A stretch of DNA of 64,000 nucleotides. It comes from an uncultured Acidobacteriota bacterium (lineage in GTDB: Bacteria; Acidobacteriota; Terriglobia; Acidiferrales; UBA7541). Position numbers and translations under genes: made by a program. The notes under the pieces are model-generated. The model made no database searches, had not been told where the DNA came from, and saw only the letters and a list, made by a program, of their open reading frames with translations. Of this stretch, positions 6,637-42,839 are shown in pieces. Positions within the stretch are counted from its first letter, which is position 1, and every line of letters begins with the position of its first letter. The stretch spans positions 315,383 to 379,382 of the forward strand of contig CAVWEZ010000007.1 in assembly GCA_963754105.1 (NCBI GenBank), in the 5' to 3' direction.

Positions 6637-6990
6637 ATGCCAACTCTGATCGAGAAACCAACTGAGGTCGTAGCGGCGGGGACGAAGCCGAAGCTCATCG
6701 AAGAATTTGTGGGGCGGGTCAACTCGAAGACTGCGGGCGTGAGCGTCGCGCGCATGCGAAGTCCCGCAGGATGGTCGGAGCCGGGGCAAACGCCAGAATT
6801 CGACGAATATAGCGTCGTGCTGAGCGGAACGCTTCACGTCGCCCACGCGGCGGGTGACCTAGACGTTCGCGCTGGTCAAGCTGTGATCGCGCACGGCGGA
6901 GAGTGGGTGCAGTACTCGACGCCCGAGGGTGCGGAATATATCTCGGTATGTCTGCCGGCGTTTTCTCCGGCTACTGTGCATCGCGACTGA
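6637..6990 (+). CDS. Cupin domain protein
   Basis: An intact 117-aa ORF 23 nt after the SDR gene. It has a cupin-like pattern (EFDEYSVVLSGTLHV...AGQAVIAHGGEWVQYS). Confidence 0.55.
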   Translation: MPTLIEKPTEVVAAGTKPKLIEEFVGRVNSKTAGVSVARMRSPAGWSEPGQTPEFDEYSVVLSGTLHVAHAAGDLDVRAGQAVIAHGGEWVQYSTPEGAEYISVCLPAFSPATVHRD

Positions 6991-7090
6991 ACGCACTTTT
7001 TCATCGAGTGTGCCTCGCAGCCGCGCAGAATCCTGTTTCCAAAAGCAACGTTCTCGAATATTCTAGTTTGTTAGGGGGTGCGCAAATAGG

Positions 7091-7852
7091 GTGGCGGAAT
7101 CTTCAACCGTAGAGGGTTTGACTCGTTTCGGGAACACGCAGCGGCGCGACGCATGGTGGATTGAGAACCTGCCGTTCATCATCGTCCTCGGCGCTTTCAC
7201 CATTTACACCACTTGGCGGGCCGTCTTTGAGGGTAACTTTTATTGGACCGACCCGTATCTTTCGCCTTTTTTTTCACCGCTGATTGACGCGCAACACCGC
7301 TGGTGGCCCTTTTCGCCCGCGATTTTAGTTCTCTGGGGGCCCCTCGGCTTCCGCACGACCTGCTACTACTACCGGAAAGCATACTATCGCGGTTTTTTCC
7401 TCGATCCTCCGGCATGCGCAGTAGCAGAGGGTAGCCATCGCAAATACCGCGGCGAGGCGGCTTTTCCGTTCGTCCTCCAGAACGTGCATCGCTATTTTTT
7501 CTACGTCGCCGTGATCTTTGTCGGCTTTCTTTGGTATGACGCGATTCGCGCCTTCTTCTTCCCCAGCGGTTTCGGCATCGGGGTCGGCACCTTAGTCATG
7601 CTTGTCAATATCATCCTGCTGACGATTTACACTTTCTCGTGCCATTCGCTGCGCCATCTGGTCGGTGGCAAGCTCGATTGCTTCTCCTGCGCGACGCTTG
7701 GGACGCCGCGCGAATCGGTTTGGCGCGGCGTCACGAAACTGAACGAGCACCACATGTTCTGGGCCTGGGTGAGCATGATTTCCGTTGGCCTCACCGACCT
7801 CTATATCCGCTTGGTGGCCTCCGGCGCGTTGAAGGACATTCGAATCCTGTGA
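7091..7852 (+). CDS. sdhC: Succinate dehydrogenase/fumarate reductase membrane (cytochrome b-type) subunit
   Basis: A 253-aa polytopic membrane ORF with a GTG start. Its stop overlaps the sdhA start (GTGA at 7849-7852). Gene order is C-A-B. Confidence 0.7.
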   Translation: MAESSTVEGLTRFGNTQRRDAWWIENLPFIIVLGAFTIYTTWRAVFEGNFYWTDPYLSPFFSPLIDAQHRWWPFSPAILVLWGPLGFRTTCYYYRKAYYRGFFLDPPACAVAEGSHRKYRGEAAFPFVLQNVHRYFFYVAVIFVGFLWYDAIRAFFFPSGFGIGVGTLVMLVNIILLTIYTFSCHSLRHLVGGKLDCFSCATLGTPRESVWRGVTKLNEHHMFWAWVSMISVGLTDLYIRLVASGALKDIRIL

Positions 7853-9567
7853 CCTCCAAGTACGAAACCCACGAACACGACGTCCTCATCATTGGGGCGG
7901 GCGGAGCGGGACTCAGAGCTGCAATCGAGGCTCTCGCGCAGGGCTCGCGAGTGGCGGTGGTCTGCAAATCACTGCTTGGCAAGGCGCACACCGTAATGGC
8001 TGAAGGCGGCCTCGCCGCAGCAATGGCCAACGTCGATAAAGCCGACGATTGGCGCATGCATTTCCGCGACACGATGCGCGGCGGAAAATTGCTCAACAAT
8101 TGGCGCATGGCTCAGCTCCACGCTCAGGAAGCTCCCGACCGTGTTCGCGAACTCGAGCAGTGGGGCGCACTTTTCGACCGCACCGAAAAAGGCGAAATTT
8201 TGCAGCGCGCCTTTGGCGGGCACACTTTCAAGCGCCTTTGCCACGTCGGCGACCGCACCGGCCTCGAAATGATTCGCACCTTGCAGGACCGCGGCGTGGA
8301 GATGGGCTTCGATGTTTTCATGGAATGCACGATCACGCGGCTGCTCAAGGATGGCGACCGCGTCGCCGGCGCTTTCGGATACTGGCGCGATAGCGGCAGC
8401 TTCGTCACGTTCAAGGCCAAGTCCGTGGTGATCGCCACTGGCGGCATCGGAAAATCCTGGAAAATTACTTCGAATTCTTGGGAGTGCACCGGCGATGGCA
8501 TGGCCCTCGCCTACGAAGCGGGCGCCGAATTGCTCGACATGGAATTCGTGCAATTTCATCCCACCGGAATGGTCTGGCCGCCGGGAGTGCAAGGACTTCT
8601 GGTTACCGAAGCCGTCCGCGGCGAGGGCGGCATCCTGCGCAACAAGAATGGCGAGCGTTTCATGGAGAAGTACGATCCCAAGCGCATGGAGCTCTCCACG
8701 CGCGACGTCGTGTCGCGCTCGATTTACACGGAAGTCAAAGAAGGACGCGGCACTCCGCACGGCGGCGCGTTCCTCGATATTTCGCACAAGCCCGCCGAAT
8801 ATGTGAAGCGCAAGCTGCCCAGCATGTATCACCAGTTCAAGGAACTTGCGGATGTGGACATCACCAAGGGGCCCATGGAAGTCGGCCCCACCTGCCACTA
8901 CGTGATGGGCGGCATTCGCGTCGAGGCGGAAACTGGCCAATCGTCCGTGCCCGGACTCTTTGCCGCTGGCGAAGCGGCCGGCGGCCTTCACGGCGCGAAT
9001 CGCCTGGGAGGGAATTCTCTCTCGGACCTGCTGGTATTCGGGCGCCGCGCGGGCTTGGCCGCCGCTGAACAGGCGAAGAAAACCGCCGCCCCAGCTCTCG
9101 ATGACGCTCAAATCCGGGAAGCCGAGCGCCAGGCACTGGCTCCCTTTGAGCGCGCCGGCGGGGAAAATCCGTATACCATTCACCATGACCTGCAAGAAAT
9201 CATGCAGAATCTAGTCGGAATTTTCCGCGCAGACGAAGATCTGCGGAAGGCGCTCGTCGAAATCGAAAAGCTAAAAGAGCGGGCCAAGAGGACGCACGTC
9301 GAGGGAACGCGCCTGTTCAATCCCGGCTGGCATCTTTCCATCGACTTGCAATGCATGCTCACCGTTTCCGAGGCTTGCACGCACGCGGCGCTCGCACGCA
9401 AGGAAAGCCGTGGCGCGCATAGCCGCCTCGACTTCCCGAAAACCGAGGACGAATGGGGCAAGAAGAATCATGTAATCGTGAAGAAAGGCGATGCGATGTC
9501 GCTCTTCGAAGTGCCCAAGCCGGATCTGCCCGCTGACTTGCAGCAAATTTTGGCGGAAGATAAGTAG
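7849..9567 (+). CDS. sdhA: Succinate dehydrogenase/fumarate reductase flavoprotein subunit
   Basis: VTSKYETHEHDVLIIGAGGAGLRAA (FAD fold), HTVMAEGG, FVQFHPTG, RGEGG and HYVMGGI are present. The long ORF from 7639 is an upstream in-frame extension, and GTG at 7849 fits the conserved N-terminus. Confidence 0.93.
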   Translation: MTSKYETHEHDVLIIGAGGAGLRAAIEALAQGSRVAVVCKSLLGKAHTVMAEGGLAAAMANVDKADDWRMHFRDTMRGGKLLNNWRMAQLHAQEAPDRVRELEQWGALFDRTEKGEILQRAFGGHTFKRLCHVGDRTGLEMIRTLQDRGVEMGFDVFMECTITRLLKDGDRVAGAFGYWRDSGSFVTFKAKSVVIATGGIGKSWKITSNSWECTGDGMALAYEAGAELLDMEFVQFHPTGMVWPPGVQGLLVTEAVRGEGGILRNKNGERFMEKYDPKRMELSTRDVVSRSIYTEVKEGRGTPHGGAFLDISHKPAEYVKRKLPSMYHQFKELADVDITKGPMEVGPTCHYVMGGIRVEAETGQSSVPGLFAAGEAAGGLHGANRLGGNSLSDLLVFGRRAGLAAAEQAKKTAAPALDDAQIREAERQALAPFERAGGENPYTIHHDLQEIMQNLVGIFRADEDLRKALVEIEKLKERAKRTHVEGTRLFNPGWHLSIDLQCMLTVSEACTHAALARKESRGAHSRLDFPKTEDEWGKKNHVIVKKGDAMSLFEVPKPDLPADLQQILAEDK

Positions 9568-10384: not shown

Positions 10385-10795
10385 ATGCGTACCGTCGTGG
10401 CTGCCGTCATCGAACATCAAGGCAAGCTGCTGGCCTGCCAGCGGCCGCGTGGCTCCCGCTACGAGCTGATGTGGGAATTTCCCGGCGGAAAAGTCGAGCC
10501 GTGGGAAACTTTGTCCGAAGCTCTCTCGCGGGAACTGCGGGAGGAACTCGGCGTGACTGTCCAGATAGGCCCGGAAGTTTTTCACACGCGCCACACCTAT
10601 GCCGATACCGACGAGCCGCTCGACCTATTCTTCTTCGCGGCGCACGCTTCGCCCGCCGAAATCCAGAATCTGGAGTTCGAGAGGATCGAATGGCGCACCC
10701 CGGAATCGCTGCGCCAACTGTCTTTTTTGGCTGCGGACCGTCCTCTGATCGACGGCCTGGCAACGGGCTCGATCCAAGTACCCTCATCGCCCTAA
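10385..10795 (+). CDS. NUDIX hydrolase (MutT-like nucleoside triphosphate pyrophosphohydrolase)
   Basis: The Nudix box GGKVEPWETLSEALSRELREELG is present in an intact 136-aa ORF. Confidence 0.8.
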   Translation: MRTVVAAVIEHQGKLLACQRPRGSRYELMWEFPGGKVEPWETLSEALSRELREELGVTVQIGPEVFHTRHTYADTDEPLDLFFFAAHASPAEIQNLEFERIEWRTPESLRQLSFLAADRPLIDGLATGSIQVPSSP

Positions 10796-10837: not shown

Positions 10838-11722
10838 GTGCTACTTTCGCTCGCGGGTGTCCTTGAACTCATCTCCGTGAAAAAGTTCGAATCTTTCAAA
10901 GCTGCGAATCCTGAAGAAGCCGCGCTTCTCGAAAAGCTGGACCCGCACCGGCTTCCCAAGCACGTCGCCGCCATCATGGATGGGAACGGCCGCTGGGCGC
11001 AGCGCCGCCATTTGCCGCGGATCGCCGGCCATCGCGCCGGCGTAAAAGCCTCCCGCGTGGTGATTGAAACCTGCGCGCAATTGCACATTTCGTGCCTCAC
11101 TCTGTACGCTTTTTCGCTCGAAAACTGGCGGCGGCCGCAGCCCGAAGTGGATTTTCTGATGCGCTTGTTGCGCGAATATCTGAAACGCGAGCTGCCGCTG
11201 ATCCAGCAGAACAACATCCAATTGTTGGCCATCGGTCGCTCCAATCAGCTTCCGGAAACGGTGCGGAAGGATCTTGCCGACGCCATGCGCCAAACGGCGC
11301 GCAACACGGGAATGAAGCTCGTTCTCGCGCTCAATTACGGCGGCCGCGCGGAGCTCGCCGATGCTTTCAACGCCATGCTCGACCAGGTCCGCGCCGACGG
11401 CCTTTCTGCCTTCCATGCGGACGAGCAGACGATTTCCGATCATCTCTATACCGCCGGATTGCCCGACCCCGATCTTTTGATTCGCACTAGCGGCGAAATG
11501 CGCGTGAGCAACTTCCTGCTTTGGCAGATCGCGTACGCGGAAATGTACGTAACGGAGACGCTCTGGCCCGATTTTTCACGGGCGCGCCTGCTCGAGGCGC
11601 TCCTGGATTTTCAGGATCGCGAGCGCCGCTACGGAGGGTTGGAATCCGCGCGGGGCGCCGCGCCGGTGCATAAGAAGGAGGCTCCCGTCATCGGGCGCCT
11701 CGCACGCACGGGTCGGGGCTGA
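10838..11722 (+). CDS. uppS: Isoprenyl transferase (undecaprenyl diphosphate synthase)
   Basis: HVAAIMDGNGRWA, TLYAFSLENWRRP and IRTSGEMRVSNFLLWQIAYAE are present. The exact start is uncertain. Confidence 0.9.
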   Translation: MLLSLAGVLELISVKKFESFKAANPEEAALLEKLDPHRLPKHVAAIMDGNGRWAQRRHLPRIAGHRAGVKASRVVIETCAQLHISCLTLYAFSLENWRRPQPEVDFLMRLLREYLKRELPLIQQNNIQLLAIGRSNQLPETVRKDLADAMRQTARNTGMKLVLALNYGGRAELADAFNAMLDQVRADGLSAFHADEQTISDHLYTAGLPDPDLLIRTSGEMRVSNFLLWQIAYAEMYVTETLWPDFSRARLLEALLDFQDRERRYGGLESARGAAPVHKKEAPVIGRLARTGRG

Positions 11723-11728
11723 CGCCGG

Positions 11729-12589
11729 ATGCTTCTTCGCATTCTGACCGCTGCGGTGCTGATACCTGCCGTTGTCGCGCTGGTATGGTGGGGACCTGCC
11801 CCGCTATTGGCTGCTGCGGCAGCGCTGGTTGCGATCCTTGCTTTGCGCGAGTTTTTTAATTTGGGCGAACTCGTCGGCCTGCGCGCGTATCGCTATTGGG
11901 CATTCGCGTGTGCCGCCGGAATATTCTACGCGCAGTACGTGGCCGGTTCCGCGGACACTTTGACGCTCGGCTCCGGCGTCACGATCGTTCGACCGTCATC
12001 GAGCCCCTTTGCCATTTCCCTCGATGAAGTGCTCCTCATTTTCGTTTTCGGTTTGGTGATCGCGGGGCTCGCCACGCGCCGGCCGTTGCATGATGTGCTC
12101 TCCGCGGTATCGATCAGCTCGGCGGGACTTCTATTGATCGCGTTGCCATTCAGCTATTTGGTGCGCGTCAACGAAATCGTTCCCGGCGGCCGTGATCTCG
12201 TTCTATTTACTCTTGTTCTGATCTGGGCAGGCGACATGCTGGCCTATTTCACTGGGCGGACTTTCGGACGCATACCGTTCGCACCAATACTAAGCCCCAA
12301 AAAAACGTGGGAGGGGGCGATAGCAAATTTTGTGGCTTCGCTGCTGGTTGCGGTGGCTTTCGCGCGGTGGACGCAAGTGAGCGTCGTCACCCTTACAGTT
12401 GTCGCGGGGCTCGCGAACATCGCCGGTCAAATGGGAGATTTGATCAAGTCGGCTTATAAGCGCGCCGCTTCCGTGAAGGATTCGGGCACGCTTCTGCCAG
12501 GGCACGGCGGAATGCTGGATCGCATCGATAGCCTAATCCTTGCCAGCCCGGTCGTCTGGCTAGCCTGGCACTGGCTCGCCCCAAAGTAG
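11729..12589 (+). CDS. cdsA: Phosphatidate cytidylyltransferase
   Basis: A 286-aa membrane ORF with SPKKTWEG...GDLIKSAYKRAASVKDSGTLLPGHGGMLDRIDS. Confidence 0.9.
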   Translation: MLLRILTAAVLIPAVVALVWWGPAPLLAAAAALVAILALREFFNLGELVGLRAYRYWAFACAAGIFYAQYVAGSADTLTLGSGVTIVRPSSSPFAISLDEVLLIFVFGLVIAGLATRRPLHDVLSAVSISSAGLLLIALPFSYLVRVNEIVPGGRDLVLFTLVLIWAGDMLAYFTGRTFGRIPFAPILSPKKTWEGAIANFVASLLVAVAFARWTQVSVVTLTVVAGLANIAGQMGDLIKSAYKRAASVKDSGTLLPGHGGMLDRIDSLILASPVVWLAWHWLAPK

Positions 12590-12613
12590 CATCGCGAACT
12601 ACCCTCATGGCCT

Positions 12614-12688
12614 GTCATCCCGAACGAAATCCCGCGCTTTTCCCTCCGCCAGCGTCGTGTGCGGGCGCGGGACGTAGAGAGGGATCTG
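12614..12688 (+). repeat. Degenerate family-A-like intergenic element
   Basis: gtcatcccgaacgaaatcccgcgc...gcgggcgcgggacgtagagagggatctg aligns block by block with the reverse complement of 803-887. Confidence 0.35.
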
Positions 12689-33254: not shown

Positions 33255-34957
33255 TCAAATTGAGGGATCGACGTCCACGGGAATGTCGGAGCCTTTGGCC
33301 AGGGCGGCGGAGAGTTCCGGGGGCATAACTGCGTACTTTGTGAACCACTTCTCGGTGCGCGCGCGGTCTCCTGTGGCTTCTTGCTCGAGTAATTCCTTAG
33401 CGAGCGATGCGATTGCTGCGGGCATTTTCTTGAAGTCGATTTCGTAGAGGCCGGTGGAAGGGTTTCGGCGGATCGCGCCCTGTTCCGTGAGGTAGCTCAG
33501 CTCCATCATGGCGCCTGCGCCGTGCGCCTCGGCGATTCCGAAGCGGATGGTGCGAAAAGTTTCGCCGAGAAAGGAAGCGTAAATTTCATTTAGCTTGTCC
33601 TTGGAATCACGCCGTGGTCCACCAGCCACTTCACGCAGAGCAGGCCGGTGATGTCCGCTTTGGATTCTTCGAGTGCGGAATATTGCGGGCCGATTGCTTC
33701 GCGAATGTCGAGTTTGCCATTCGAGCCGTGCACGTATGCGGGCCGAGGCCGTGGGAGATTTCGTGGAGGATGACGAAGTCGAGCGTGCCTTCGCCGGTGA
33801 CCATCGTGGCCTGATCGGCGCGCATGAGGCGCTCGGCGAGCGGCAGAATGATGTAGTTCACGCGCGCATCCAGGAAATTCTTCCAGAAGATTTTCTTCGA
33901 GCCTTTTTCCTCGTGGATGCGCGGATCGTTCGGCAGATTATCGGCCACGGCCTGGTAGCCGTGCAGCAGGTCGCCCGCGCGATAAATGGCGTCCACCACT
34001 TCCATGGGCGATTGCTTGCCGCGCTTCGGAAGGCAAATCCTCGGCGCGAGCGGCAGCGATTCCTGAAGATCGGGAACGTATTTCTGGAAGAGCGGCGAGC
34101 TTTTTGCTTTCTGCGTCGTTGCGGATCATGATCCGACGCGCCGTAGGAGGTTTTCACGCCGAGCAGACCGTCGAGATAGGTTTCATACGGCGCGAAGATG
34201 ACGTCGAATTTCGGATTTTCGAGATCGAGCCAGGCGATGTCGCTCGCGAAGTAATCGTCGGTGAGCAGAGCGTCGGCGCGCAGGCGCAGGAAATTCGCGA
34301 ACGCCGGATCGTCGCTCAGCTCGCGCGGCTTCGCGGAGATCCTTGGCCATGGGAACGAGGAACTCGCGGAAGGCGACGTGGTAGGGAACGGCTTCGAGAG
34401 CGTCGCCGTTGCGGCCTGACTATCGTTTGACCATTGTAAAGAGCCGGCTTTTTGGTCGGGATGCGCGGCGACGTAGGCGTCGAATTTCGCGCTGCGTAAA
34501 ATCCTTCGGGATAAAAATCCGCGGCCGGGCGGCATCGGCTGCGTGCCGACGAAGGGCTTGTTGTCGTCGATCAGATCGTAGCGGCTGCCGTTGATTTTGA
34601 GATATCGGCGCAGCATCTGGTCCTGCGGATTCTTGCTATTTGCGAGCGAGAGATAGAGTTTCAGTCCTTCGGGATCGCTCTGGCGCCAGTAGATGCAATC
34701 GAGCAGGCCGGCGGCGTCGACGAGCTTATCGACCATTTTCTTTTCGCGCGGGGTGAGATCCTTGGAGTTGAAATGGTATATTGATGGGCTTGAATTTTGC
34801 AAACTGCTGGGCAAGATCCGGCGCGATAACCAGTTTGGATGAGGCGGACTGGGAAGCAGATGATCCTGGAGCTGATATCGTCCACGCCGCTCCGATGACG
34901 ATCAAGCCCGAAAGTATCAGGGAGAAAATTGCGGGATCGGAGAACGCCCCCTCGCAA
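33255..34957 (-). pseudogene. Secreted zinc metallopeptidase-like protein (HExxH; DPP3/M49-related family, tentative); at least 4 frame interruptions
   Basis: A TTG start with a signal-like N-terminus (MRGGVLRSRNF / SLILSGLIVIGAAWT). Pieces read FNSKDLTPREKKMVDKLVDAAGLLDCIYWRQSD, ...DFVILHEISHGLGPH, and ...FGIAEAHGAGAMMELSYLTEQGAI... Confidence 0.55.
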
Positions 34958-35200
34958 AAAGTTCAGAGTAGAATCTACCTCGACCCTTTGTTTTCTGTAA
35001 GTTGCGTCACGTTTTATTCGTCTCTCAGTTGCGAGTAGAGATGAGCGATGCGCGGCAGCCGGCGGCTCGGCCAGGGTTCGTTCGCCCGCCGTCGGTCCAT
35101 GTCTTGGTCGACTTCCTTAGTATTTCGCACGCGCCTATATTAGAGCAGGGGGCGGCTAGCGCAAGCACAAACTCCTGTGGACTTATTTCTCTGATTGACG

Positions 35201-35696
35201 ATGGCCAAGAAAAGCGCGGGACTCTGATGTATCGAGTGCGGGATGGAAAGTTAGAGGTTCTGCTGGTGCATCTGGGCGGGCCGTTTTCGGGCGAAAAAGG
35301 ATGCCGGGGCCTGGTTTGTGCCCAAGGGAGAAGTGGAGCCTGGCGAAGACGAACTTGGCGCCGCCAAGCGCGAATTTAGAGAAGAAACCGGTTTCGATCC
35401 GGGCGATGAAGTGCAACCTCTCGGAAGCGTAAAGCACAAGAGCGGGAAAACAGTTACCGCAGTGGGCGTTCGAGGGCGATTGCAATCCTGCCGCTTTGAA
35501 AAGCAATACCTTCACAATCGAGTGGCCGCCGCGCTCAGGGAAGCAGCGGGAATTTCCCGAGATTGATCGAGCCGCGTTCTTCACCGTCGAAACGGCTCGC
35601 GCCAAAATTCACCCTGCCGAACTTGATCTTGTTGAACGACTGCATTCGCTTTGGGAGGGGCTCCAACATCTGGACCTTAGAAACAGGGATGCATGA
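35201..35696 (+). pseudogene. NUDIX hydrolase (COG4119-like); at least 3 frame interruptions
   Basis: MAKKSAGL / MYRVRDGKLEVLLVHLGGPF / VPKGEVEPGEDELGAAKREFREETG (Nudix box) / TFTIEWPPRSGKQREFPEIDRAAFFTVETARAKIHPAELDLVERL across frames. Confidence 0.75.
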
Positions 35697-36399
35697 GGAA
35701 TCTGAAGAAGCAGGAGCGAACCGCCATCGAAGCCGTCGCCAGACGGTTCTCGGCAACGTGGGAAAAGGGCGGTGATCCCTCCGACGCCTGTATCATGGTC
35801 GCCGGGAAACGGGTTGCTCTTGCATCGCAACCCTCAAACCGCGCGGCGCCAGTCACGGTAAGGACGCCAAGCCTCGTTTGAGGTTCGATAAGGTTGCCAC
35901 CAGGCTCATCGAACATCTGCAAACCACCCTTGACGAAACCGTTCCGGAAGGCATGACAGTCTTGCTGACCATCACCGCTCCCATCCGCTTGCCATCGAAA
36001 ACCGCTGCCTCGCTGGAAGGGAAAACACGAACTTTTCTCGGGCAGGGTTCGCCGGGTCGAGATGAGAAAGCCACGATTCACGGGAATCGCATTCGGATTC
36101 GACTTTTGAAAGGCAAATCCGAGCGAGCGCCAAAAATGATCGGGTTCGTGCACAATTCCGACTCAGACCCACTTCTACTTTTGAACATGACACGTGAATT
36201 GCTTGAGCTGATCAGCGCCGAGGCTGGCGGGCGGACTCTGAGGCGGGCGGGTGATCGGTGGCTGGTTGTAGTAAGCGCTGGAGGGATTTCATGCCTAGAG
36301 GCATATCGCTACATCTATTCGCAGCTGCGCATAGCGACCGGCTTTAAGAAAACTCTCATGGTGTTTGACGATGGACGCCTCGGCATGTTGAAGGAATGA
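35693..36399 (+). pseudogene. Hypothetical protein (about 235 aa), start overlaps the NUDIX stop (ATGA); frame interrupted near 35830-35880
   Basis: MRNLKKQERTAIEAVARRFSATWEKGGDPSDACIMVAGKRVA... continues as RFDKVATRLIEHLQTTLDETVPEGMTVLLTITAPIRLPSK... No domain recognised. Confidence 0.4.
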
Positions 36400-36459
36400 A
36401 ACGACCGTAAGGAAAAGGGTTCAAGTAACATATCAGGCTGGCTGTGAGGAGTTGCTGAA

Positions 36460-37336
36460 ATGGAAAATCGCGGTTTCCTCCCTTGCATCACTCTGATAGG
36501 AATTTGCTTACTCCTACCTCAACTTTCGGGTGCACGCCAGAGCGCGATCGTTTGGAACGATCAGGAAAAACCTATTGCACAGCAGATTGGCACGCTGCGT
36601 TCGCTGCCCGATGATGTTCGCGCGCGGACGACAAAGCAGCTTGCGCTTCAGATTCGTCAACTGCCTGCCGGCGCCAACAAACTGACGCTAGCGAACTCTC
36701 TCGCCAATCTCTCGACGGAAGGTGATTTCGGCCGCGACACGCTGCAGGAAGTGACGACCACTCTGGCCGAAGCGCTTCGCGAACACCCCGTGCCTGAGGA
36801 AGAAGGGCCAACCTGCCGCGCCGTACGTCGAACTTGCACAACTTGTCCGTTACGAGCACATGCAAGCGTCGTCCGATTCGCCGGAGTTTTCCGCGGCAAT
36901 GGCGAAACTTGAAAGCGATGACAAAGGGCGCCAGCATGCGGACTTCACGCTCACGGACCTGGAGGGCAAGAGTTGGACGCTCAGCAAACTCCGAGGCAAA
37001 GTTGTGGTTGTGAATTTCTGGGCTACCTGGTGTCCACCGTGCCGCAAGGAAATGCCCGATCTCGAGGCTCTCTACAATCATTTCAAGGGCCAGGGGCTCG
37101 TAGTGCTGGCCATATCGGACGAAGATGCCGCCAAGGTGCGGCCGTTCATCGCCGAGCGCCAGGTGACGTACCCCGTCCTGCTCGATCCTGGTCGCGAGGT
37201 GAACGATCTATTTCAGGTGGAAGGAATTCCTAAGACCTTCGTCTATGACCGCAACGGCAAGCTGGTCGCACAATCCATCGATATGCGGACCCAGAAGCAG
37301 TTCCTTGGGATGCTCGCGGAAGCAGGACTCAAATAG
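36460..37336 (+). pseudogene. TlpA/ResA-like thiol:disulfide oxidoreductase with N-terminal extension; frame interrupted near 36810
   Basis: A signal peptide (MENRGFLPCITLIGICLLLPQLSGA) is present. The C-terminal thioredoxin fold has VVVVNFWATWCPPCRKEMPDLEALY...GIPKTFVYD. Confidence 0.8.
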
Positions 37337-37461
37337 CCATCGCAGGGAGAACTGGGTGGGGACGGCGGGCCAACGTCCCGCCGAACCCTGACTCCGGTCT
37401 TCGAGTCCGACTGTATCTCTCTTTTGATGGGTTTGTGCGGACTCCTCGCTGCTTTGAACCG

Positions 37462-37755
37462 TCACGCAGCTTCGACGATACGAAAATCCCGTTGCGCGGC
37501 GTTGTCGAAGGCTTTGAGCGCCGCCCGATACAGGTCGCTTTCATACGCGGCGATCGCCTTTTCCAGGTTTTCAAACTCAACGACGACAACCGACTGATCT
37601 ACTCCCGCCTCGCGGGTTTCCGCAGGCTTGCCTCCGATGATAACGCGACCTCCCAAAGCATCCAGCGCAGCGCGCGCAAGCCTCGCATATTCTGACATCG
37701 CGGCGGGATTCGAGACCGATTCGTAGCACACTACCCAATATCCCTTCTTAACCAT
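37462..37755 (-). CDS. DUF1330 domain protein
   Basis: An intact 97-aa ORF reading MVKKGYWVVCYESVSNPAAMSEYARLA...VVVVEFENLEKAIAAYESDLYRAAL. Confidence 0.8.
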   Translation of the reverse strand: MVKKGYWVVCYESVSNPAAMSEYARLARAALDALGGRVIIGGKPAETREAGVDQSVVVVEFENLEKAIAAYESDLYRAALKAFDNAAQRDFRIVEAA

Positions 37756-37970
37756 TGTGAGTCCTCCAGGAAAGAATGAATGCGACGATCGTAATCCGTG
37801 CCTTAAATCGTTGGGATTGTGCCGCCATCAATTACATACTCAGCACCAGCAATGGCGGCAGCTTTCTCCGAAGGCAATGGATCGTACGGGCTGTTACCAA
37901 TAACTGGGTGCGAGCGGCAGAAAGCAGAAAAGCCGCCAGACAGGGCCGCTCCCCGACGGCACCTGCGGCT

Positions 37971-38456
37971 TCATTCACTAATGACGTGGTCGGCCCATTC
38001 CACCAGGGAAACGTAGATCGGAACCGTGCCCCATTGCGCGTTCCAACTGCTCAAGTCCGCCTCCGTGACCCCACGGGCCCGGGAGCAGGCTCCTCAAGAA
38101 AATACCGGGATGCGTTTGGCTACAACCTTCGCCATGGTCTCGCTCAGGGGAGGCCATCCGATGGGTTTGACCACATCAACCGTCGCTTTGCGCATGAGGT
38201 ACGTAGCGTCGTGAGTGAGAAATATCTGCACATCATGCCCGGCGTCGGCCAGTGCGAGCCCGTGGGAAAAGACGAAGGATGCGCGGGTCGGCTCATCGGT
38301 TCCCCAAGAACTCCTCATCAAAATGTGCAGTTTCTTCTTGGGTGCCTGAGGTTGCTGAGTCTGCGCATCGCTGGTGGAAGCCGTAATGGCCCCGGCGGCG
38401 AGTACGCCAGCAGCCAATTGCGTCGATTTTTCAAGAAAGCTTCGGCGGGTTGCCAC
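37971..38456 (-). CDS. Tat-signal DsrE/DsrF-like protein with an in-frame TGA (38094-38096); selenocysteine candidate, or point error/pseudogene
   Basis: MATRRSFLEKSTQLAAGVLAAG carries a twin-Arg signal. The ORF stops at ...KRIPVFS-TGA, but the same frame continues for 40 more codons as GACSRARGVTEADLSSWNAQWGTVPIYVSLVEWADHVISE, a typical DsrE-family C-terminus. The TGA sits where the first Cys of a CGAC motif is expected. Confidence 0.6.
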
Positions 38457-38571
38457 ACCTCACCTCCGGCAATTCGCAGGACTCTACACGAGCCGTGGGC
38501 TGATTACAAATTATTATTGAGGTTCGCATAAACACACTTATAAGGGCAACAGTTCCGCTATCGCAGCAGAA

Positions 38572-39483
38572 CTAGTTTGCGACGACGGCGGTAGGGGCGG
38601 GGCGGCCGGAGACAATTTCGTGGACGATTTTGGCGGCCAGGGCTTTGCTTGTGGCGCAGGATGAGTCGTTGATGCGGCATTGCGCGATCGTGAACTTGCA
38701 GCCGCAAGTACAAAGGTCCGTGTTCATGCGCTTGAGCGCCTCGCGCTTTTGCGCCGCAGTCAGCCCCTTAAAATCCACGCCGGGGAGTTCCGTGGCGTTC
38801 GCTGCATTCTTCATGAAAATCTCGCCGACATCCTGGAACGTTTCAACTTTAGCTTTCACGGGCATGCCGAGCAGCGACCGGATTTCGGTGTCATAAACTC
38901 CGATGGGGTAGAGGCCAGCGTGCTTTTGGACGACGCGTCCTTCGGGCGAGATAATAAATGAGGTAGGAAGGGCCGGCACGCCTCCATATTCGGCCTCAAT
39001 GGCGCCGCTGCCCATCACGACCGGATAGGTGATGCCAATCTGTTTGGCGAATTCCAGAACCTCGCTGGCGGGTGCGTCGTCCATCGAGACGCCGATGATC
39101 TGGAGCTTGTCCTTGTAGCGGCTGGAGAGTTCGATCAGCTCTGGAATCTCTTCGCGGCAAGGTGGGCACCAAGTGGCCCAAAAATTTACTAGCACGACTT
39201 TGCCGTGGAAGCCGGCTGTGGAGATGATGCCGCCGTCCAAATCGTTTACTAGAAACGGAGGCATGCGCTCGGGATTGCGCGCGAAGTGGATTACCGACGG
39301 CACGCCTGAATCATCGGCATCATCTCCGCTCTCCTGCGCGCTTTTGGCATGAGCAGCTAATGAGTGGGAAGAAGCGGCGTGATTCGCGGCTAAGATGCGG
39401 CGCCCGCGGACCAGGGTCACAAGGCCGATCAGCAGGAGAATAGCGGCGCCCAGCGCCAATAAGATTGTGGAAGTCCGTTTCAT
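38572..39483 (-). CDS. TlpA-like thioredoxin-fold protein with a C-terminal Cys-rich domain
   Basis: The start is placed at MKRTSTILLALGAAILLLIGLV (GAGGAA 5 nt upstream), although the ORF extends to 39531. VVLVNFWATWCPPCREEIPEL is present, and the C-terminus reads DLCTCGCKFTIAQCRINDSSC. Confidence 0.8.
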   Translation of the reverse strand: MKRTSTILLALGAAILLLIGLVTLVRGRRILAANHAASSHSLAAHAKSAQESGDDADDSGVPSVIHFARNPERMPPFLVNDLDGGIISTAGFHGKVVLVNFWATWCPPCREEIPELIELSSRYKDKLQIIGVSMDDAPASEVLEFAKQIGITYPVVMGSGAIEAEYGGVPALPTSFIISPEGRVVQKHAGLYPIGVYDTEIRSLLGMPVKAKVETFQDVGEIFMKNAANATELPGVDFKGLTAAQKREALKRMNTDLCTCGCKFTIAQCRINDSSCATSKALAAKIVHEIVSGRPAPTAVVAN

Positions 39484-39990
39484 ACGATTCCTCTGGCTAT
39501 TATGAGCCAGAGCCTGGATTCGCACAATCATTTGGAGTTAGCGATGCTGGCTCCGGTCCGCTACGGGATGGATATTCCCGAATCGAAACGCTAGATTAGA
39601 AACCGCAGTAGTGCTGGAGCGTTAAGTGCTGGGTATTGAACAATCGAAGCTAGGAATTATAAGTTTCTTTGAGGCATGCCGTTTGCAATGAGCAGGGGCG
39701 TGGTCGCGTTCCTACGCGGTCCGCGCTATTGGGGGATGGGGAGGAAGGGGCCCATTTACCGGTGGAACGGATCGTTCCCACCTGCCTCTGAGAGGGAAGC
39801 TAGGATGGATGACCCCATGGTCCGGTCTCGCCTAGGCCGGGCCAATGGAACGCGACTTTGGGGGTTCCCGATCCCAAGCGGGGCCCCCTCTTTTTTTCCA
39901 TCCGACGTCCGCGCAATTCAACTACTCGAAGATCTGTCTGGGCTTGTGGCTGGGTTGCATCCGACGGCGCGTGCGATAATCCCCCTGCGC

Positions 39991-40782
39991 ATGCGCAACA
40001 TCAAACTTACAATCTCATACGACGGCACGAATTTTCACGGATGGCAGATTCAGCCAGGCCTTCCTACAATTCAAGGGCTGTTGAACGATGCCGCATGCAC
40101 CATCACGCAGGAAAAAATTGTGGTTCACGGCGCCAGCCGGACTGACAGCGGAGTGCACGCGCTGAGACAAGTGGCGCACTTCAAGACGCTTTCCGGCCTG
40201 CCGGCGTCGGAATTTCAGCGCGCGCTGAACGCGTTGCTGCCGCCGGCGATTCGTATAGTGGACGCGGAGGAAGTTGGCCCCGAGTTCCATGCGCGCTGGC
40301 TGGCGCAGGCCAAGACGTATCGCTATCGAATTTATCGCGGACACGTGCTGCCGCCGTTCGATTACGGCCGCGCGCTGCACTATCCGTGGCCGCTCGACGA
40401 GGATGCCATGGCCATGGCCGCGCGGCAGTTCGCAGGCGAGCACGACTTTACTTCATTTGCAGCGTCGTCCGGCTCCGATGAAGACGACGGCGGGCGGAAT
40501 ATGGTTCGTGTGATCCATTCCTCGGAGTTGATTGGTCGGGCGGCGAATGAGGAAATCGAGTACACGGTGCGCGGGCGATCGTTTTTGAGATACATGGTGC
40601 GGAAGATCGTGGGGACGCTCATTGAAGTGGGGAAGGGAAGGCTCGCCGCTTCCGATGTTCCCAGAATTCTGGAAATGCGCGACCGATCGTCCTCGGGAGC
40701 AACTGCCCCGCCGGAGGGCTTGTACCTCGTTTCGCTGGAATATCCCGATCCTACGGACTCGCTGGGGTCGCGCCGCCCATAA
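39991..40782 (+). CDS. truA: tRNA pseudouridine(38-40) synthase
   Basis: MRNIKLTISYDGTNFHGWQIQPG...GASRTDSGVHA...RSFLRYMVRKIVG. The ORF extension upstream to 39676 has no TruA similarity. Confidence 0.9.
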   Translation: MRNIKLTISYDGTNFHGWQIQPGLPTIQGLLNDAACTITQEKIVVHGASRTDSGVHALRQVAHFKTLSGLPASEFQRALNALLPPAIRIVDAEEVGPEFHARWLAQAKTYRYRIYRGHVLPPFDYGRALHYPWPLDEDAMAMAARQFAGEHDFTSFAASSGSDEDDGGRNMVRVIHSSELIGRAANEEIEYTVRGRSFLRYMVRKIVGTLIEVGKGRLAASDVPRILEMRDRSSSGATAPPEGLYLVSLEYPDPTDSLGSRRP

Positions 40783-40938
40783 AGGCGGTCGCAGGACTTG
40801 ATGTTTTGCTGTGATGACTTTTGCTGAGTGTAAAGCGGATGTTCAAGCACGGGTTGCTTGCTACTTTCCGGCGCGCTATTGTGGGAACGCCTCGATGGTA
40901 GCCTCAGGGAGTCAGTTTTTCGGGCAGGAGATGGCCTC

Positions 40939-41307
40939 ATGAATGTCGCTTACAGCCAAATCGACATCGAATTTCGCGAAGCGGTCGAAAAAGAATGCGC
41001 GCGCCATGTCGAAAAGTTGAACAGGATTCTGAAGCGGTACACGCCCGACGCAATACAGCTGCATGTGTCGTTAGAAAAAAGTCCGCGGCGAATCGAGTAC
41101 AACTCCTCACTTAACTTGACGCTGCCGACTGGGGTGCTTCATGCCACGGGTTCCGGCGGGAGCGTGCGCTCCAGCGCAAAGGTGGCCTTCGCCGAAATCG
41201 AGAGCCAGCTGAAAAAACATCAGCAAAAGCTGCGCAAAGACTACGTTTGGAAACGAAAGCGGGGGCGCGGCGCAGTAAAGCTCGCGGAGCTACCGCAGGC
41301 GGACTGA
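40939..41307 (+). CDS. HPF/RaiA (ribosome-associated inhibitor) family protein
   Basis: MNVAYSQIDIEFREAVEKECARHVEKLNRILKRYTPDAIQLHVSLEK...FAEIESQLKKHQQKLRKD fits the S30AE-family layout from memory. Confidence 0.55.
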   Translation: MNVAYSQIDIEFREAVEKECARHVEKLNRILKRYTPDAIQLHVSLEKSPRRIEYNSSLNLTLPTGVLHATGSGGSVRSSAKVAFAEIESQLKKHQQKLRKDYVWKRKRGRGAVKLAELPQAD

Positions 41308-41392
41308 AAAGCCAACGCGCTTTCGCGGAAAAGTAAACCGTACCGCGCGGAACCTGCTTGTAGGCGCGTCCCTCTTGTGATTGAATAATTAC

Positions 41393-41465
41393 GGCAAAGG
41401 AGTTTGCCTCCCCTCGCTCGTGGGGATAAAACGCCGTTTCTTCAACGGCTGATAACTCCTCCTAA
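41393..41465 (+). promoter_or_regulatory. Fluoride riboswitch (crcB motif) candidate with an extra internal hairpin
   Basis: GGCA-AAGGAGUU-UGCC forms P1 with an 8-nt loop. ...AAAACGCCGUU-UCUUC-AACGGCUGAU-AACUCCUCC follows. The AACUCC can pair with GGAGUU of the P1 loop (pseudoknot), mirroring GGCGAUGAGGCCCGCC...AAACUGCCC...GGGCUGAUGGCCUC of known aptamers. It lies upstream of crcB and the DUF190 genes. Confidence 0.6.
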
Positions 41466-41658
41466 TTACTGCGCACCAGCTTGGTGCATGAGGACGGTAT
41501 GGGAGGAGCCAGAACAAATCGGACAATCGAAACATACATCTTGAAGTTTGCGCGGCAGTTTTGTCTGGGTTATCTGGTTATCGGTGTGTCGCAATGTAGC
41601 GTGGGATAGATCGAGGGCGCCTGGCGGCGTCGAAAGGAGAAGGAGCAGAGTCGTTACC

Positions 41659-42036
41659 ATGACCAAATATCTTATTGTTGGTATCGGAGGAGCCGTAGGG
41701 TCAATATTGCGCTTCTGGGCCGGAGGCTACGTGAGCGGCCGGTTGGGCGCTCGCTTTCCGTACGGCACCTTCGTCATCAATATCACGGCGTCGTTTCTAA
41801 TTGGTTTTGTCATGACTCTTCTGGCCGAAAAAGCGCACTGGAGCCCGAATTGGAGATACTTGATTCCGATCGGATTCCTCGGAGGATACAGCACGTTTTC
41901 CGCTTTTGAGTATGAGACGTTTCGTGTCTTCCAGGATGGCGAGCTTCTCATTGCGGCGATGAATATCGTGCTGAGCGTGGCCGTTGGTTTTGTCTCGGTC
42001 TGGCTGGGGGTCATCACCGGAAAGGCAGTCTCGTAA
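41659..42036 (+). CDS. crcB: Fluoride channel CrcB
   Basis: MTKYLIVGIGGAVGSILRFW...GTFVINITASFLIGF...GFLGGYSTFSAFEYET, with a strong AGGAGAAGGAG upstream. Confidence 0.9.
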   Translation: MTKYLIVGIGGAVGSILRFWAGGYVSGRLGARFPYGTFVINITASFLIGFVMTLLAEKAHWSPNWRYLIPIGFLGGYSTFSAFEYETFRVFQDGELLIAAMNIVLSVAVGFVSVWLGVITGKAVS

Positions 42037-42104: not shown

Positions 42105-42839
42105 ATGCTCAAGGCAGGACCTGCCAAAAAGGTCAGCATCTCTGTAGGGGAAGATCACCAGTACCACGGGCAATCCTTGTATGTCGCGATTCTGGACTTT
42201 CTTTTCTACCGCGGAATCTCCGGCGCCAGCGTAACGCGAGGGATCGCGGGATTTGGAGCTGACCATCACCTACATACAACTCGGATTGAGGCCCTCACAC
42301 AGAACCTTCCAATGAAGATTGAATTTATCGAGTCTGCGGAGAAGGTCGAAGAAGTTTTGCCAAAACTCTACGAGTTGGCAGGTACGGGACTGATCGAAAT
42401 TCAAGACACCACGGTGCTCAAACCGGCGGAAGTATCGAAAAAAAAGGTCACGCAAGAATCGTCGCCATCCCTCAAGCGCGAGGGCAAGGCCAAGCTGATG
42501 AGGATTTATGTCGGCGAGAACGATAAGTGGAGCGATAAGCCGCTGTACAGGGCTTTGATCGAGAGCATGCGGGCAAATGACATCGCCGGAGTCACGGTGT
42601 ATCAGGGAATTCTGGGCTATGGTGCGAACCGGCGAATCCACAAGGATTCAGCGCTGCACCTCTCCCACGACCGCCCCATGATGTTGTCGGTCGTCGAAAC
42701 CGAGGAAAAGCTGCAGGCTTATTTCCCCGTTCTCGATCAGATGGTCCAGCAAGGGCTCGTTGTCTTGTCCGATGTGGACATCATCAAGTACACCCACGAC
42801 ATTGCGACAACGGAGCGGCGAAAGGAGGCCCGGTCATGA
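42105..42839 (+). CDS. DUF190 domain protein (two tandem DUF190/PII-like domains)
   Basis: KKVSISVGEDHQYHGQSLYVAILDFLFYRGISGASVTRGIAGFG... and KLMRIYVGENDKWSDKPLYRALIESMRANDIAGVTVYQGILGYG... Confidence 0.8.
   Translation: MLKAGPAKKVSISVGEDHQYHGQSLYVAILDFLFYRGISGASVTRGIAGFGADHHLHTTRIEALTQNLPMKIEFIESAEKVEEVLPKLYELAGTGLIEIQDTTVLKPAEVSKKKVTQESSPSLKREGKAKLMRIYVGENDKWSDKPLYRALIESMRANDIAGVTVYQGILGYGANRRIHKDSALHLSHDRPMMLSVVETEEKLQAYFPVLDQMVQQGLVVLSDVDIIKYTHDIATTERRKEARS

Follow-up and report, generated by a model that had tools for sequence, protein, structure and literature searches.

Does the TGA codon inside a DsrE-like gene of an uncultured Acidobacteriota bacterium stop translation, or is it read as selenocysteine (Sec)? 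The gene lies on the minus strand of a 64,000-nucleotide (nt) stretch of contig CAVWEZ010000007.1 (assembly GCA_963754105.1, positions 315,383 to 379,382; Acidiferrales, UBA7541), hereafter the window, and an earlier sequence-only reading had proposed a selenoprotein exported by twin-arginine translocation (Tat), with a hairpin resembling a selenocysteine insertion sequence (SECIS) just after the TGA. Comparison with related loci supports that proposal: the TGA sits in a cysteine (Cys) column, recurs in 64 of 75 loci, is followed by a conserved hairpin, and belongs to a fold for which a predicted UxxC selenoprotein family has been published. From this comparative evidence, the UGA at 38096-38094 very probably encodes Sec in a DsrE-type protein that is predicted to be exported.

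An In-Frame TGA in a Cysteine Column

Translation from the GTG at 38456 (minus strand) gives a 120-codon open reading frame (ORF) that ends ...AKRIPVFS at the TGA (38096-38094), after which the frame stays open for 40 further codons (GACSRARGVTEADLSSWNAQWGTVPIYVSLVEWADHVISE) up to a second TGA (37973-37971), just as the sequence-only reading had described. Its suggestion that these codons encode the usual C-terminus of a DsrE/DsrF protein is borne out by Pfam. With the TGA bridged, the DsrE/DsrF-like family PF02635 matches residues 42-159 (E = 9e-14; 52 bits against a cut-off of 22.7; model positions 2-114, or 113 of 116), and the U121-G-A-C124 motif falls inside the match. Because the match runs across the TGA, a 120-residue product would be a truncated domain. 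NCBIfam holds no model specific for the protein, and its only matches, both below threshold, were to a Tat signal model and to the DsrE2 sulfur carrier model NF047629 (16.4 bits against an equivalog cut-off of 210), a weak hidden Markov model match.

Close relatives, drawn from a search space of 5.8 billion proteins, fall into two classes. The first comprises 161-residue proteins (70-93% identity) that are colinear with the window gene and carry C-G-A-C-S-R-A-R-G, while the second comprises many 120-122-residue proteins (~90-95% identity) that end exactly at ...VFS or ...VFA. Public annotation holds dozens of 120-residue "DsrE family" or "hypothetical" proteins stopping at the TGA column. Cys121 and Cys124 are invariant among the full-length Cys-type homologues (CGACSRARG), and the alignment thus agrees with the earlier expectation that the TGA stands where a Cys belongs. 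An exhaustive family search (1.84 billion cluster representatives, E ≤ 0.001) returned a small family of 481 proteins, made up partly of members with a signal and partly of cytoplasmic members of 120 residues with C-x-x-C-x-x-A-R-G; more members of this family are cut at the same column.

A scan with one genome for each Genome Taxonomy Database species yielded 430 relatives. DNA was examined for the best 80 and the codon could be located in 75 loci, where it is TGA in 64, TGT in 7, and TGC in 4; the 65 Sec forms counted below are these 64 TGA loci plus the window. The TGA genomes are metagenome-assembled genomes (MAGs) of Terriglobales, Candidatus Sulfotelmatobacter, Acidiferrales, and related groups from several projects, together with one isolate, Acidobacteria bacterium AB60 (L018). 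The 40 codons 3' of the TGA are open in all 65 Sec forms, with no premature stop and the same stop codon in 64 of them. Pairwise differences over codons +12 to +40 number 24307 at third positions against 10296 and 9941 at first and second positions. Together, the third-position bias and the open frame indicate that the region past the TGA is translated and under purifying selection. The second TGA is the true stop in 48 of 65 Sec forms, the window among them, and since many Sec forms also terminate at TGA, the genetic code has not been reassigned and UGA still signals stop.

Two MAGs carry the gene on two contigs each. One pair (L037 and L038) shares an identical 5.8-kb block with rearranged flanks of ~85% identity, and in the other (L020 and L024) the gene differs between contigs with flanks that are 91-99% identical; these pairs could be strain mixtures or true duplicates.

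A Conserved Hairpin Follows the UGA

Conservation past the TGA extends to synonymous sites. With the U of UGA numbered 1, the stretch +13 to +34 (TCCCGGGCCCGTGGGGTCACGG, 38084-38063) is nearly invariant in the TGA forms. Codon entropies across S-R-A-R-G-V-T (codons +4 to +10) are 0, 0.32, 0, 0, 0, 0.38, and 0 in the 65 Sec forms, compared with 1-1.9 for codons of four- and six-fold degeneracy in the rest of the gene, and the same codons vary in Cys forms, where entropy reaches 1.5 (ten Cys forms used). The RNAalifold consensus pairs C15-G34, C16-G33, G17-C32, G18-C30, G19-U29, C20-G28, C21-G27, and C22-G26, with A31 bulged and G23-U24-G25 (38074-38072) forming the apical loop. Across 47 distinct sequences, pair 18-30 is seen as GC, CG, AU, GU, and UG, pairing in the apical helix holds for 99.6% of cells, and the observed scores were reached by 0 of 500 shuffles. 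It is between-genome comparison, rather than single-sequence stability, that gives strong support for an RNA element.

Bacterial SECIS elements have their apical loop within a certain range of distances from the UGA. The sequence-only reading had placed loop G residues about 23-25 nt from the UGA, and the conserved hairpin does have G in a small apical loop at 23-25 nt, counted from the U. Work from the Gladyshev group describes the bacterial SECIS as a stem-loop with a small G-containing apical loop directly after the UGA (PMC1088965), a description that the hairpin at +15 to +34 fits. The pairing first proposed, CCGUG-GGGU-CACGG, can be drawn at 38076-38063, but the comparative data favor the C15-G34 register with the GUG loop: the earlier register (C21-G25 with C30-G34, loop GGGU) shows no covariation, with pairing in 94.5% of cells, and is broken by A31U across the whole "GVS" clade and in a distant branch. 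We prefer the GUG-loop register as the likelier structure. A lower-stem extension (+5 to +44) was also rejected, as its pairs are kept in ~75-95% of cells with little covariation and are absent from the RNAalifold consensus. Rfam placed no RNA family on the hairpin at gathering or permissive thresholds.

The distant branch consists of L090 and L091 (~40% protein identity), which carry GCCC-GUG-GGGU at the identical distance from the UGA and swap G18-C30 for C18-G30. In both (L090 37-519, L091 240-746) the TGA stands at the same column, within …IPIFV-U-KACATARGVV…, and the N-termini have RR signals. The shared TGA and hairpin apex suggest that Sec use reaches beyond the acidobacterial clade of the window.

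Selenocysteine and Cysteine Forms

In a neighbor-joining tree computed without the hairpin region, Cys forms are nested within Sec forms at no fewer than four places (at least 4). Within the former hairpin, mismatches to the Sec consensus number 0 in L062, 1-3 in the group of L030, L006, L017, L027, L033, and L034, 5 in L060 and L068, and 7 in L059, and are highest in the two most divergent Cys groups. From these sequence patterns, Sec appears to be the older state among the examined loci, Cys replacements appear repeated and recent, and the hairpin appears to decay once the UGA is gone. This decay ties conservation of the hairpin to the UGA. Residue 130 is always Val (GUC, in the stem) in Sec forms and mostly Ile (AUC or AUA) in Cys forms, and RNA structure therefore appears to constrain protein sequence. 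One TGT Cys-type copy (L054 10361-10482, P0055) loses its frame a few codons past the CxxC (…CGACSRAVGSRRQT, then a stop), and is either a frameshifted pseudogene or an assembly error.

A DsrE/YchN Fold and a Proposed Chemistry

A sequence search of the PDB found no relative. The AlphaFold2 model of the closest Cys homologue has a core mostly at predicted local distance difference test (pLDDT) values of 82-91, and its six best Foldseek matches in the PDB are all of DsrE/YchN type: YchN (1jx7), BT1422 (2fb6), DsrEFH (2hy5), Swol_2425 (3pnx, entered as "putative sulfurtransferase DsrE"), and two Sulfolobus DsrE/DsrF-like proteins (3mc3, 2qs7), at E values of 1e-4 to 6e-2 and TM-scores of 0.43-0.72. 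The model places residue 121 where strand 118-121 ends and helix 122-127 starts. This residue aligns with Escherichia coli TusD Cys78, and RARG aligns with TusD RRG, in an hhalign profile alignment and a MAFFT multiple alignment. In the TusBCD/DsrEFH relays, TusD Cys78 carries the persulfide.

The N-terminus reads M-A-T-R-R-S-F-L-E-K (T3-R4-R5-S6-F7-L8-E9-K10), followed by hydrophobic residues 14-26 and then S-D-A31, and R4, R5, and F7 are invariant among homologues. By eye this resembles a textbook twin-arginine signal, and the protein is predicted to be exported.

Our reasoned guess is that the product is a periplasmic DsrE-fold protein with Sec121 as nucleophile or persulfide carrier and Cys124 as resolving residue. 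Sec-tRNA(Sec) and SelB, recruited by the hairpin at +15 to +34 (38082-38063), would decode the UGA at 38096-38094 as Sec, while the second UGA (37973-37971), which has no such hairpin, would end translation. The twin-arginine signal would then take the folded protein to the periplasm. There, Sec121, at the aligned position of the persulfide-carrying Cys of DsrE/TusD, would make a U-G-A-C center with Cys124. Attack by Sec121 on a sulfane-sulfur, disulfide, or similar chalcogen substrate would give a Se-S adduct, which Cys124 would resolve to an intramolecular selenenylsulfide that periplasmic thiol-disulfide reductants could re-reduce. In this scheme, SelB dependence, export, and the chemistry of the Sec121 protein are what we infer.

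The same residues could serve a different kind of selenoprotein, namely a thiol peroxidase or general thiol-disulfide oxidoreductase rather than a sulfur relay, since UxxC is typical of redox selenoproteins (PMC1088965). Homologues have been named "predicted peroxiredoxin" by the Joint Genome Institute, and a DsrF/DsrH/TusA-type partner was not seen nearby. We regard an oxidoreductase as possible but less likely than not, because the fold is that of DsrE/YchN and not of thioredoxin or peroxiredoxin, no peroxiredoxin family was matched, and Sec would occupy the persulfide-carrying Cys position of TusD/DsrE. The oxidoreductase and sulfur-relay readings overlap, as both would involve a Se-S intermediate resolved by Cys124.

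Relation to Known Systems

The catalytic subunits of periplasmic formate dehydrogenases of the FdnG/FdoG type have a Tat signal and a Sec encoded by UGA, with the SECIS inside the coding region. The window protein would be like them in pairing a twin-arginine signal with a UGA-encoded Sec. However, FdnG and FdoG are molybdopterin enzymes of ~1000 residues with partner subunits, whereas the mature window protein would have ~130 residues, with no cofactor domain or partner detected. To DsrE/TusD of the DsrEFH/TusBCD systems the likeness is one of fold (2hy5 is among the top matches) and possibly of active site, where the alignments put Sec121 on TusD Cys78 and RARG on RRG but sequence similarity alone is not significant. 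Unlike these cytoplasmic proteins, the window protein is predicted to be periplasmic, would have Sec instead of Cys, and has a second Cys three residues on; no DsrF/DsrH (TusC/TusB) or TusA/DsrC-type partner gene was found nearby. YchN and the single-domain DsrE/DsrF-like proteins BT1422, Swol_2425, and the two from Sulfolobus, whose function has not been established, are the best structural matches and are, like the window protein, stand-alone small proteins, but sequence identity is only 11-23%, and none is a selenoprotein or Tat-exported according to its entry.

The closest precedent is the "DsrE-like protein" (UxxC, PF02635), a selenoprotein family predicted from Sargasso Sea data and Desulfovibrio vulgaris (Zhang, Fomenko & Gladyshev 2005, PMC1088965; PMC13188914). 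Its reference member, WP_014524487.1, has 107 residues, reads ...LAAUGKCMGIHG..., and lacks a signal (PMC9312934, PMC13188914, PMC12013277). The sequence-only reading was right that such a family had been listed, but the published member is only distantly related: BLASTP aligns it with the window protein at 30% identity over 67 residues (E = 0.009), U on U. The two share the PF02635 fold, U-G-x-C, the existence of Cys homologues, and a hairpin right after the UGA. Where WP_014524487.1 has no signal and reads UGKCMGIHG, the window protein carries a Tat-type signal and reads UGACSRARG, and its C-terminus is longer. By fold and motif the window gene thus seems to belong to this family, and by sequence it appears to form a separate, distant Tat-signal branch.

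Weighing the Selenocysteine Reading

Several observations weigh against reading the UGA as Sec and the product as an exported DsrE-type protein. First, neither the 64-kb window nor ~1.4 Mb of related loci yielded selA, selB, selD, or tRNA-Sec. ARAGORN found tRNA-Lys as the sole tRNA of the window and no tRNA-Sec there or in the loci, and tblastn with E. coli SelA, SelB, and SelD returned only translation-GTPase-like stretches, the SelB-like match in the window being IF-2; a lack of Sec machinery near the gene says little on the whole genome. Second, taken as a single sequence, the 47 nt past the UGA fold at -21.4 kcal/mol with z = -1.1, and 28 of 200 dinucleotide shuffles equal this. Covariation is limited to one base pair with the rest of the hairpin invariant, and the hairpin stretch doubles as code for conserved residues (A-R-G-V). 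Third, confidence in the AlphaFold2 model is moderate (mean pLDDT 71.8), hhalign gives a match to TusD that is not significant by itself (probability 0.2), and the Tat model TIGR01409 scores just under threshold (15.3 bits, cut-off 16.7). Finally, clustering of neighboring ORFs found no genuine family in more than 6 of 75 loci, and the substrate is not indicated by it.

Published work bears on the first of these points. Selenoproteins have been on record for Acidobacteria since 2006 (PMC1794560). Occallatibacter riparius, which is placed in Acidobacteriota, serves as a reference Sec user with FdhA, AhpD-like, and deiodinase-like selenoproteins (PMC12013277), and Sec-containing hydrogenases occur in Acidobacteriota (PMC13582414). 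The Sec trait therefore exists in the phylum, and the source genome probably has it. Within the 64-kb window, no other in-frame TGA candidate had a convincing redox motif.

Recoding of the UGA to an amino acid other than Sec could involve Cys, through a SelC*-like tRNA(Cys) and a SelB-type factor, or Ser or another residue, through an allo-tRNA. Acidobacterial allo-tRNAs may be nonsense suppressors, and SelC*-type tRNA(Cys) may read UGA in other phyla (Mukai et al., PMC5389517). We consider such recoding improbable. Reports of SelC* tRNAs come from anaerobic Firmicutes, Thermodesulfobacteria, Nitrospirae, and Proteobacteria and not from Acidobacteria (PMC5389517), Acidobacteriota with ordinary selenoproteins are documented, and a general suppressor explains neither the position-specific conserved hairpin nor the use of UGA as the true stop of the same gene.

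A still smaller probability attaches to the TGA being a true stop, with a 120-residue truncated DsrE-like product or a decaying pseudogene as the outcome. The many database entries of 120 residues ending ...VFS or ...VFA would suit a stop, as would the lack of Sec machinery in the window and related loci. Such a product, however, would break off before the active-site residue and would also miss the final strand and helices of the Pfam domain. A stop also fails to account for a downstream frame with no premature stop in any of the 65 Sec forms, with the shared stop codon in 64 and a third-position bias, and a pseudogene would not keep these features across lineages down to ~63% protein identity. 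A sequencing or assembly error for TGC or TGT has next to no probability, even with at least one probable indel elsewhere in the window (a split TlpA-like gene near 36790-36810), because 64 of 75 loci carry the TGA with a conserved downstream frame, these being independent assemblies from different projects including the isolate AB60 (L018), and because the window has the Sec-type hairpin core and residues (GVT, TVP) and not the Cys-type ones.

An Inserted Unit of About 700 bp

Reading of the UGA as Sec leaves the question of how the gene came to its present site, and the features that bear on it are collected with those of the gene in Table 1.

Table 1. Features of the selenoprotein gene candidate and its surroundings (positions are those of the window).
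Feature	Positions	Strand	Basis and remarks
Predicted selenoprotein gene, complete	37971..38456	minus	161 codons + stop; GTG start; UGA-Sec (probable) = codon 121; stop TGA 37973-37971
UGA codon 121, probably read as Sec, first residue of U-G-A-C	38094..38096	minus	Cys-column alignment; TusD Cys78; published DsrE-like U
40 codons after the probable Sec	37974..38093	minus	C124 of UxxC; R126/R128/G129 motif; C-terminal helices of DsrE fold
SECIS-type hairpin	38063..38082	minus	RNAalifold consensus; frozen codons; pair 18-30 covariation
Possible lower hairpin extension (G5-U44 ... U13-G36)	38053..38092	minus	Minimum free energy fold; weakly supported
Predicted Tat signal peptide, residues 1-31	38364..38456	minus	T-R-R-S-F-L-E-K, hydrophobic stretch, S-D-A / Q; putative cleavage site
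Upstream part of unit, promoter-like/5' untranslated region	38457..38571	minus	TTGTAATCAGCC...TGTAGAGT; ribosome-binding site GGAGGTG 38467-38461; conserved up to 38559
Conserved 3' flank	37872..37970	minus	GC-rich hairpin, then CTTTTCTGC; possible terminator; conserved in closer loci
805 bp absent from L086	37767..38571	minus	Between TlpA-like stop (38572) and DUF1330 gene
Remnant matching the 3' end of the TetR/short-chain dehydrogenase insert	37768..37871	minus	85.6% identity over 104 nt to L087 8486-8589

On the minus strand the gene stands between a membrane-anchored TlpA-like gene (39531-38572) and a DUF1330 gene (37755-37462), a second TlpA-like gene converges on it from the plus strand, and TruA is also among the window neighbors. 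The sequence-only reading saw a redox context here. TlpA-like and DUF1330 genes do flank the gene, but they are not conserved neighbors, and with the gene being an insertion at this spot the redox context is coincidental. In none of the 80 loci did any of these neighbors lie less than 10 kb from the gene, and a blastn comparison of window 34001-42000 with the loci matched only 37871-38559 (72-96% identity). The loci also share little flanking sequence among themselves. An assignment of function from neighbors was rejected on these grounds: at most 6 of 75 loci share any one neighbor family, and the genes beside it in the window are unrelated to the history of the selenoprotein gene candidate.

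The closest syntenic relative fetched, L086 (TlpA 95% identical), has the order TruA-TlpA-DUF1330-TlpA-NUDIX and no DsrE gene. Its TlpA and DUF1330 genes are separated by a gap of 31 nt (6912-6944), and homology between window and L086 stops at 38572 and restarts at 37766. In L087-L089 (93% relatives), a TetR regulator and a short-chain dehydrogenase occupy the TlpA-DUF1330 spot (7049-8554). The break against L086 and the lone match at 37871-38559 show that a ~700-bp unit (~37872-38571) was inserted at a spot that accepts other cargo. By sequence comparison, this appears to be a self-contained unit that sits at differing chromosomal sites in different soil Acidobacteriota.

The upstream segment of the unit may function as a promoter; a simple sigma-70 scan found no promoter upstream of the gene. 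By fold z-score the 3' hairpin does not reach significance, and a terminator scan found no intrinsic terminator. Neither terminal inverted repeats nor a transposase were found at the unit ends.

A 34-nt motif (CCCTTATAAGTGTGTTTATGCGAACCTCAATAAT) at window 38513-38546 (minus strand) also occurs upstream of the gene in about ten closer loci, and is found once in the window against 0 occurrences expected by chance. In four loci (L013, L014, and, at 10615 in each, L005 and L026) a copy lies downstream of the gene, and in L013 (9919 and 10608) and L014 (9912 and 10613) the motif forms a direct repeat around the unit, possibly a scar of insertion or duplication. In L022 an IS110-like transposase ORF, recognized by eye, lies at ~11510-12630, ~1.1 kb downstream of the gene. 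This ORF family is present in four loci at varying positions, and a consistent link between the unit and any mobility gene was not seen.

Gene copies with 64-94% protein identity lie on contigs binned outside Acidobacteriota (L023, L033, L053, L058, L059, L060, L061, and L066), in bins assigned to Eremiobacterota (Aquilonibacter, Baltobacteraceae), Verrucomicrobiia, Deltaproteobacteria, Methylomirabilota, Kofleriaceae, and Dormiibacterota. These copies reflect either cross-phylum horizontal transfer or mis-binned acidobacterial contigs.

We tentatively hypothesize, at somewhat less than even confidence, that the unit is a portable ~700-bp module moving horizontally among soil bacteria into unrelated sites, the TlpA-DUF1330 hot spot included, and that Sec is ancestral in it, with at least four Cys replacements, each accompanied by SECIS decay. 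If true, this would be a portable selenoprotein module whose spread is limited to recipients that already decode Sec.

Two further observations concern the surrounding window. The convergent TlpA-like gene at 36460-37336 (plus strand) is split near 36788-36807 into overlapping ORFs of 150 and 158 residues in different frames, and its L086 orthologue is a single 289-residue protein matching both pieces; the split is probably due to an indel, which would mean either an assembly error or a pseudogene. A fluoride riboswitch (RF01734, 39 bits) at 41384-41468 lies upstream of a CrcB channel gene (41548-42036) and a DUF190 gene (42105-42839), an ordinary layout that is already known.

Implications

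The finding extends a predicted selenoprotein family and does not overturn current understanding. More unusual would be a portable, self-contained gene and a repeated replacement of Sec by Cys with decay of the SECIS. Many 120-residue "DsrE family" or "hypothetical" entries from soil Acidobacteriota are probably 161-residue selenoproteins cut at the Sec codon, and recognition of this clade would correct their annotation and enlarge the selenoproteome of a dominant soil phylum. The family also offers a natural experiment, in which the SECIS appears to freeze synonymous sites and fix Val130, and mismatches appear to accrue after TGA changes to TGT or TGC. If exported, a small DsrE-fold protein that has Sec at the presumed persulfide-carrier site would point to periplasmic sulfur or chalcogen chemistry that depends on selenium.

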